DNA from: a virus
Taxonomy: Duplodnaviria; Heunggongvirae; Uroviricota; Caudoviricetes
Length of the DNA: 8,008 bases
Virus record (IMG/VR): IMGVR_UViG_2534682157_000011
Span: 1-8,008 of that record
Reading direction: 5' to 3' (one strand)
Shown here: positions 1 to 1,202 of the stretch, piece by piece
How the letters are laid out: every line of letters starts with the position of its first letter
Position numbering within the stretch: the first letter of the stretch is position 1
Translations under genes and position numbers: made by a program
The notes under the pieces: generated by a model
What the model was told of the DNA's origin: nothing
What the model saw: the letters and a program-made list of their open reading frames with translations, nothing else
The model's database searches: none

Positions 1-774
1 CTCAACAAGCAGATCACGAAATTCGTTAGCCATTTCTTCCTGCACTGCTTCCAGCTGAATAATGCGCAGAACCAGTACAGGACGATCGCCAGTGATAATG
101 CTGAGGCGTAATTTAAATGGACGTTCTTTCAGACCTTCAAACGGAACGCATTTAAATTCAAATGCCACTGGCATAATATCTTTGGTTTTCGCTTCGACAG
201 ACTCCATCAGGGAGCGTTTGCCGCTGAAGTCATTATCTTCAAAATCAGCGGTCTGGTTTGCTTCAATCGTGATTTTACGGACAGCCGCAGCCGCTTTTGT
301 TGCCTGAATAGCGTCACCATTAGCATCAAAGCCCACAAGGTAGTCGGCCCAGTCTTCAATCCATTCTGCCAGTGACTTCTGGGAATGACGCTCGCCGTTA
401 ACAGACAACAGAGCAGAGAACGGTGCTGTCTTTTTCAGTTTGAGAGTGGCGGTGTTATCTGCGTGACCTGGTTCATCAATAGTACCCAGGTTAAGCACAC
501 TGACGGCTCGCATATTATCGGCATCGATAAAGCAGCGGGTGCCTTCATCTGCAAGATCTTTAGAATAACGGGTAAAGTCATCGATGCTGGCAGTGGAAAG
601 CGCACCACGGAAACGGAAGCGATTTAAATTAAATTTTTCCAGATCATGAATGCGGAAATTCTCAGGCAATGCCACAACATCGGCACCAATCTTACTGATA
701 ATTTCATTAACACCCTGAGCAGAAATAAGAGCATGGATTTGATTAATTGCGGTTGCGTCTAAGTTCTGAGACAT
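1..774 (-). CDS. Prophage early-region protein, DUF2303/YfdQ-like; N-terminus complete, C-terminal end runs off the window
   Basis: Reverse-strand frame is open from ATG (774-772) to position 1 with no stop (258 codons). It is absent from the supplied ORF track because no stop lies inside the window. SD GAGGA sits 7 nt upstream. Translation begins [67 protein letters not shown]. Size and context recall the ~274-aa YfdQ/DUF2303 prophage family (recollection, not searched). Confidence 0.75.
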
Positions 775-839
775 AATAAGTCCTCACTATATAAAGATAT
801 TCAGTGATGAGATAAATAATCAGTTAATTAAGAACGATA

Positions 840-1202
840 TTAATGACCTGCTGCGCGGAGTTTTCCGTCAGGTTCACCGGCAAGAGTCAGTAATTGTCCC
901 TGGTCTTCCTGCAGAATAGTCAGGCGACCACCGCGATTGACATACATCGGCGTTTCGGTGGTGTCTTCTTCAGAAATTTTCCCGCGGTTAGTCGGGCGAA
1001 CATATGAGAGTTTGTGTTTGATTTTCACACGGTTCTCATCAAACGGTTCGATTTCCAGGTTGAGCGAGACCTTACCTTTGGTTTTCGTGTTCATCACACC
1101 GGAAGCGACTTCACTGAGAACTGCGCCGATTTTTGTTTCAAATACGCCGCCGTCCAGCTCCCCGATAAATGCCTGCACATCAGTACTGCGTTCGCTAGCC
1201 AT
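840..1202 (-). CDS. Hypothetical prophage early protein, 120 aa (YfdP-like by size and position)
   Basis: Track ORF 840..1388 trimmed to the internal ATG at 1202-1200 (MASERSTDVQAFIGELDGG...), which has a GAGGAG SD 8 nt upstream. The 62 codons upstream of it in the track ORF have no RBS and overlap the inverted-repeat region. Stop is TAA at 842-840. Same strand as the gene at 1-774, 65-nt spacer, so probably one leftward operon. Confidence 0.7.
   Translation of the reverse strand: MASERSTDVQAFIGELDGGVFETKIGAVLSEVASGVMNTKTKGKVSLNLEIEPFDENRVKIKHKLSYVRPTNRGKISEEDTTETPMYVNRGGRLTILQEDQGQLLTLAGEPDGKLRAAGH

Follow-up and report, generated by a model that had tools for sequence, protein, structure and literature searches.

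The stretch of DNA analysed here, positions 1 to 8,008 of the virus record IMGVR_UViG_2534682157_000011 (hereafter the window, 8,008 nucleotides [nt] in length), very probably comes from a lambda-like temperate phage of E. coli, related to SfV, mEp460 and Shiga toxin 2a (Stx2a) phages, and represents its early control region in intact form. The window ends within yfdQ at its left edge and at the start of yfdM at its right edge, and both of its flanks have counterparts in CPS-53 (KplE1), a cryptic prophage of E. coli K-12. Judging from the sequences, K-12 lost an immunity region together with the 5' end of the replication gene O, but probably not the immunity region and O gene found here. The comparison places one end of the K-12 deletion at a position in O where many other prophage remnants are also broken.

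The window and its counterpart in CPS-53

The window was compared by BLASTN with positions 2464000-2480000 of NC_000913, the CPS-53 region of strain MG1655, and its proteins were compared by BLASTP with those of MG1655. Based on K-12 gene sizes of 120, 274 and 164 amino acids (aa), the initial annotation had equated the two leftward genes and a rightward gene of 164 aa with yfdP, yfdQ and yfdN. These sizes, and 122 aa for YfdO, agree with the RefSeq annotation, and the three genes proved to be true orthologues, with 99.17% identity over 120 aa for YfdP, 98.45% over 258 aa for YfdQ and 97.56% over 164 aa for YfdN. At the nucleotide level, window positions 1-1221 correspond to K-12 yfdQ-yfdP plus 19 nt upstream (97.7%), and positions 7390-8008 to a segment that takes in the final 76 nt of yfdO and runs through yfdN into the start of yfdM (96.9%). 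Protein identity for yfdQ, yfdP, yfdN and the yfdM start ranges from 97.6 to 100%, with the same order and orientation in both elements. The 6,168 nt between these matches (1222-7389) span the leader, cI, cro and cII as well as the three Rha cassettes and the bulk of O, and they gave no BLASTN match in this K-12 region. In contrast to the window, CPS-53 has neither a leader nor a repressor, cro, cII or rha gene in its yfdO-yfdP interval; the 5' end of O is missing there as well, and the O remnant belongs to another allele. The view that the window carries the complete region lost by K-12 thus holds for the existence of a missing immunity region but not for its identity, as the O alleles differ. 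The intS/torI/argW integration module and the gtr genes of CPS-53 (gtrABS, yfdGHI) lie beyond what the window shows, and no tRNA or att site was found in the window.

In the window, a cI-type repressor lies between two candidate operator regions; the operon structure and promoters are inferred by analogy with lambdoid phages. To the left of cI, a long, presumably untranslated leader precedes yfdP-yfdQ(-yfdR...), the presumed early-left operon. To its right follow cro, a cII/YmfL-like gene, a DUF4222-like open reading frame (ORF) and three Rha (antirepressor-type) cassettes predicted to be controlled by C4 RNA, and then a small ORF, an O-like initiator with origin repeats, yfdN (PerC-like) and yfdM (methylase). 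The features are as follows.

1-774, minus strand: yfdQ orthologue (DUF2303), cut by the left edge after 258 of its 274 codons, with its 3' end outside the window
840-1202, minus strand: yfdP orthologue, 120 aa, with an AGGAG Shine-Dalgarno sequence 7 nt before the ATG
1203-1221, minus strand: last 19 nt upstream of yfdP kept by K-12, with the deletion joint at 1221/1222
1222-1980, minus strand: GC-rich leader, long and devoid of any credible gene, separating yfdP from the presumed leftward promoter
1888-1925, no strand assigned: candidate left operator (oL), two operator-like 15-mers TTGCG-N5-CGCAA (1888-1902, 1 mismatch; 1911-1925, 0 mismatches)
1981-2673, minus strand: cI-type repressor, 230 aa, helix-turn-helix (HTH) and S24 peptidase (Pfam Peptidase_S24, E 1e-18, and HTH_3/HTH_26; PHROG 'CI-like repressor')
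2694-2756, no strand assigned: candidate right operator (oR), operator-like repeats between cI and cro, with a 15-mer at 2694-2708 (1 mismatch)
2771-3031, plus strand: cro-like HTH protein, 86 aa (Pfam HTH_3, E 6e-10)
3024-3575, plus strand: cII/YmfL-like regulator, 183 aa (Pfam Phage_CP76, E 3e-14; PHROG 101 'CII-like')
3720-3899, plus strand: DUF4222-like small ORF, 59 aa (PHROG 1343, E 2e-36; the equivalent ORF is annotated DUF4222 in EH53)
3887-6440, plus strand: tandem array of three diverged cassettes that each combine a Rha gene with an isrK-like RNA and a C4 antisense RNA
4177-4740, 5037-5588 and 5884-6429, plus strand: the three Rha genes (each with Pfam Phage_pRha)
6426-6650, plus strand: small conserved ORF, 74 aa (PHROG 1153, E 1e-45; hypothetical in EH53, WGPS2 and mEp460)
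6647-7465, plus strand: O-like replication initiator, 272 aa (HTH_36, E 2e-11; PHROG 270 'replication initiation protein', E 5e-88)
7390-7465, plus strand: last 76 nt of the O gene, the sole part in common with K-12 yfdO, where the second BLASTN match starts (7390)
7462-7956, plus strand: yfdN orthologue, 164 aa, PerC family, GTG start (Pfam PerC, E 2e-9)
7956-8008, plus strand: start of a yfdM-type adenine methyltransferase gene (17 of 17 residues identical to K-12 YfdM)

The centre of the window has the makeup of a lambdoid immunity region, as far as sequence can tell, with divergent cI and cro genes, candidate operators on both sides of cI, and cII beyond. The motif TTGCG-N5-CGCAA is matched 13 times in the window against 5.3 expected, and the three best matches (1888, 1911 and 2694) flank cI, a distribution that fits candidate left and right operators. 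A 32-nt imperfect inverted repeat at 2692-2758 also lies between cI and cro.

The yfdP-yfdQ arm of the window shares 99.3% identity with its counterparts in phage 1720a-02 and in two Stx2a phages; for mEp460, the annotation of which already cites CPS-53 and SfV, the value is 97.4%. In mEp460, the Stx2a phages WGPS2/1447 and 1720a-02, the whole early region is collinear with the window and 93-99% identical, in the common order yfdR-yfdQ-yfdP, leader, cI, cro, cII, Rha, small ORF, 272-aa O, PerC and methylase. Relatives with a window-type early region use several other integration modules, and the yfdP-yfdQ arm is not confined to CPS-53 either, being a mosaic module associated with several integrases, repressors and immunity modules.

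Within this arm, yfdP lies immediately upstream of yfdQ on the same strand, with a 65-nt spacer as in K-12. YfdQ of the window belongs to Pfam PF10065 (DUF2303, E 4.8e-89) and PHROG 210, and a PDB sequence search identified a match in the 40% range to entry 9o7m, 'YfdQ protein' (E 1.4e-43). This structure of a YfdQ homologue comprises 36 chains, and no paper describing it was found. YfdP was assigned to PHROG 204 (E 1e-49), and its homologues carry PF27127; the PDB sequence search with YfdP gave no match. Because homologues of the two proteins occur in one common set of enterobacterial genera, a functional pair is suggested. PADLOC and NCBIfam searches provided nothing that gives either protein a function. 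YfdR is a 5'-deoxynucleotidase that binds DnaA, and multicopy (over-expressed) yfdQRST inhibits chromosomal initiation, an effect that requires yfdQ and not yfdP (PMC4776307). A 2025 paper described yfdR, yfdQ and yfdP homologues as common in lambdoid early-left operons, the last two without known function (PMC12315714). With low confidence, YfdP and YfdQ, which always come as a pair, might be early accessory proteins for host takeover or replication modulation.

Several observations weigh against this picture of the window and its left arm. The integrase, att site and late genes lie beyond the window edges, and the likeness to CPS-53 seen here concerns the shared modules. A simple promoter scan of the window revealed no convincing pL or pR. 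The AlphaFold2 models of YfdQ and YfdP used for structural searches, built from 30-sequence alignments, were of medium confidence (predicted local distance difference test scores of 76 and 68), and Foldseek comparison of these models with the PDB yielded no match better than E 0.09 and no assigned function. Entry 9o7m is either absent from the Foldseek PDB library used or unmatched by the YfdQ model.

Two O alleles and the K-12 joint

Between its two matches to the window, K-12 holds 631 nt of a different O allele. Translation of the yfdO-yfdP interval gives an uninterrupted frame of 236 codons, the 3' 708 nt of a 313-aa O gene, of which the annotated 122-aa YfdO represents the tail only. In a search of 5,426 complete E. 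coli genomes, 1,948 records, among them those of O145 RM13516 and STB20-1, had positions 18-726 of the K-12 interval continuous within an intact 313-aa 'helix-turn-helix' gene. The 272-aa O of the window is 29% identical overall to this K-12-type protein; only the last ~25 codons (76 nt) are shared, and the protein match of the window O to YfdO is limited to the last 25-33 residues. With an N-terminal winged helix-turn-helix (wHTH) and iterons within its own gene, the window O has the features of a lambda O-type initiator. Its iteron-like repeats at 6912-7040, of GTGCAGGAGATTCAC type and including four of a 39-nt family, may function as an origin, whereas the array of the K-12-type O has a 15-nt period (9056-9178 of reference locus L003). 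Since their internal repeat arrays differ, the two O proteins have different replication specificities.

The genetic context of the two alleles differs as well. The 5' end of the 313-aa allele is directly preceded by ymfL-DUF4222, without rha, in 1,902 genomes, and a window-type repressor and cro are also seen before this allele, again without rha, in one locus (L011). As the O alleles differ and the 313-aa allele follows ymfL-DUF4222 without rha, a loss by K-12 of this particular repressor or of rha is unsupported. The K-12 ancestor would rather have had a ymfL-DUF4222-O arrangement without rha, similar to that of e14, another prophage remnant of K-12. It is thus very unlikely that CPS-53 is a simple deletion derivative of exactly the window's arrangement, having lost this repressor, cro, rha and O: the flanks are 97-99% identical and agree in order and orientation, but the 631 nt that K-12 retains between them are absent from the window and derive from an O allele with other origin repeats and, normally, other neighbours. 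The window does not carry the O allele of CPS-53 proper (yfdO/oweS), so that it represents a mosaic relative of the K-12 remnant and not its parent.

Base-by-base comparison defined the K-12 joint as ...CTCCTCATCATA|ACCGCAATG. At this point the window reads CATCATA|TCGACC, K-12 CATCATA|ACCGC and the intact O gene CAGGGTA|ACCGC, the dinucleotide TA being common to both parents. The CPS-53 deletion thus connects a point 19-20 nt upstream of yfdP with O at nt 235/236; the joint has this 2-nt TA microhomology, and both arms are left without their presumed promoters. The K-12 joint was detected in 360 of the 5,426 genomes, and all full-length rows sampled were K-12 or laboratory strains.

A recurrent break point in the 313-aa O gene

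The CPS-53 break lies at nt 235/236 of the 313-aa O gene (GGGTA|ACC; 9586/9587 of K-12 locus L001), ca. 55-70 nt to the left of its iteron array. Fifteen other prophage-remnant joints, from 12 chimeras, e14, ETEC4075 and strain 38, end at O nt 233-239 (9000-9006 of L003), with a mode at 235. In ETEC4075 the joint (...GGGTA|GCCAGT) leads to a tail-fibre-assembly gene, and in strain 38 (...GGGTAAC|AGCGC) to a tail-fibre gene. A protein search with O residues 1-79 recovered 120 short chimeras, 59 of which leave O at residues 78-80; once plain frameshifts were removed, this was the case for 42 of 69 distinct chimeric tails. These counts come from a survey in which the query ended at residue 79, only proteins of up to 139 aa were listed and 90% clusters are not independent events; despite these limits the spike at residues 78-80 stands far above neighbouring positions, and the joints established at the DNA level are independent. 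In all 12 chimeras for which DNA was analysed, O breaks off at nt 233-239, and in eight it does so exactly after A235.

The sequences joined to O at this site are diverse and include RusA (at three different points), DUF968 (at least two points), Q, the small terminase, tail genes and the 3' end of O itself. Undeleted partner sequences, where found, end in GGGTA, GGTA, GGGT, GGATA, GGTTA or TAACCG; the 3'-terminal bases of the retained O end therefore supplied the microhomology. The left side of O is retained in 15 of the 15 joints, and CPS-53 alone retains the right side, from nt 236 or earlier within the shared TA.

K-12 itself holds complementary halves of this gene, with codons 1-78 in e14 (oweE) and codons 79-313 in CPS-53 (yfdO plus 340 nt upstream; L001 8879-9586). 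In e14 (ymfK-ymfT-ymfL-ymfM-oweE|aaaE), oweE consists of nt 1-234 of the 313-aa allele fused to a terminase fragment (L007 8171-8404; joint 8404/8405), so that the same O allele is broken at the same spot as in CPS-53. The leader and ymfL of e14 are related to those of the window at 83-86%, but e14 differs from the window by another repressor and cro (ymfK/ymfT), the absence of yfdP, yfdQ and rha, and an O fused to the terminase fragment. A transfer of the 3.3-kb block lost from CPS-53 into e14 (ymfH..oweE) would account for the two end points that the e14 block shares within 2 nt (CATA|TCGACC at the left, O nt 234 at the right), and both joints were confined to the K-12 lineage in the rows sampled. 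Such a transfer is nonetheless highly improbable. A diverged (95.4%) e14 from outside K-12 (PK8568) likewise has xisE next to ymfH, and the left edge of the block therefore looks like a natural module border; the right edge coincides with the general hot spot at which many unrelated remnants are broken; and the e14 leader is only 83-89% identical to yfdP-linked leaders. The e14 immunity block as a piece cut from CPS-53 was accordingly rejected as the principal explanation. Reasoning from the gene orders, a single chromosomal inversion or a reciprocal exchange between e14 and CPS-53 cannot yield the observed joints.

We consider it about as likely as not that GGGTA|ACC (nt 235/236) is a site-specific break or replication-arrest point that repeatedly seeds microhomology-mediated, prophage-killing deletions, including those of e14 and CPS-53. 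The K-12 gap could also be a random illegitimate deletion whose end point in O has no special meaning: the microhomology at the joint is just 2 nt, as in ordinary illegitimate deletions, and the 313-aa allele is also truncated elsewhere, for example at nt 183 and at about nt 443. This appears unlikely given the 15 independent joints at nt 233-239 of the same gene, the predominance of residues 78-80 among the chimeric tails and the GGTA-like microhomology of the partner sites. The truncations at nt 183 (L003 8950; residues 60-61) form a second, weaker cluster with nine distinct tails, exemplified by isolate 2-101 (L023 1569/1570), in which the joint GGCTATC|CGGCAGG fuses O to minor tail protein L.

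As for what might cause breakage at GGGTA|ACC, a GGTNACC (BstEII-type) restriction site fits loosely, but breaks cluster after the central base, and the heptamer is absent at the minor nt-183 site and from the window's own O. Deletion hot spots have been described at replication nick and arrest sites, such as the M13 and pC194 origin nick sites and terB. As at those sites, one end is here fixed to the nucleotide beside an origin; the other varies, its position being set by a few nt of homology to the 3' end that is fixed. In contrast to those systems, we know of neither a nickase nor a terminator protein that would act with an O-type initiator of this kind (wHTH, theta-type).

Other modules of the window and meaning of the comparison

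Between cII and O, the window carries three C4/isrK-rha cassettes that are 82-84% identical to one another, whereas mEp460, WGPS2/1447 and 1720a-02 have a single C4/Rha cassette, and close relatives rarely have two. The C4 RNAs scored 82-84 bits in Rfam (gathering score 45) and the isrK RNAs 60-62 bits, all six above gathering scores. Each C4 loop is a perfect 8-9-nt complement to a different site 19-20 nt before its own rha ATG, and a second C4 element pairs 51-53 nt upstream, suggesting that the cassettes may provide three separate antisense specificities. This combination of a C4 RNA upstream of a Rha gene with loop complementarity matches, in its sequence features, a P1-type (immI-like) C4/antirepressor system. 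The same RNA families occur in P1/P7 immI, where c4 antisense RNA controls icd-ant, and in Salmonella Gifsy-1 isrK-anrP, and in these systems too the C4 loop is complementary to a site just upstream of an antirepressor-type gene. The window differs from both in having three diverged tandem cassettes in a lambdoid early-right operon, with a Rha-family gene as the putatively controlled gene. The ORFs of 340, 283 and 238 aa (3718-4740, 4737-5588 and 5713-6429) are Rha genes read through the upstream RNA leader; their starts are artefacts, and the true Rha starts are at 4177, 5037 and 5884. The parts upstream of these starts are RNA genes that are, by chance, open on both strands.

The region between yfdP and cI is probably a structured early-left leader. 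Its ~760 nt (1222-1980) have a GC content of 0.55, fold better than shuffled sequences (z = -3.6) and contain inverted repeats at 1251-1275/1315-1339 and 1530-1549/1637-1656. The first 166 nt (1222-1387) are conserved in prophages carrying other immunity regions, and neither EH53 nor WGPS2 has any annotation for the leader. The possibility that the 1203-1980 gap (~780 nt) contains a gene was considered and rejected, as its ORFs had no Pfam-like, NCBIfam or PADLOC match; Rfam also returned nothing there. On the divergent arm, yfdN and yfdM lie downstream of O as in the CPS-53-type arrangement, and EH53 and mEp460, in which the yfdM-type gene is full-length, list its product as an N-6-adenine methyltransferase.

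The module itself is already known: annotations of it exist for hundreds of E. coli prophages as well as for mEp460, Stx2a phages and SfV-like phages, which makes the finding as such an ordinary one. With yfdP-yfdQ annotated in so many lambdoid phages and prophages, and CPS-53 a known remnant, its recognition in the window carries little weight, and the comparison is useful in that it maps the K-12 deletion precisely. A deletion end that recurs, to the nucleotide, beside a phage origin could offer a concrete and testable route to cryptic prophages. If the break point in the 313-aa O gene does act in this way, the decay of E. coli prophages would be driven in part by a defined, origin-linked lesion and not by random deletion.

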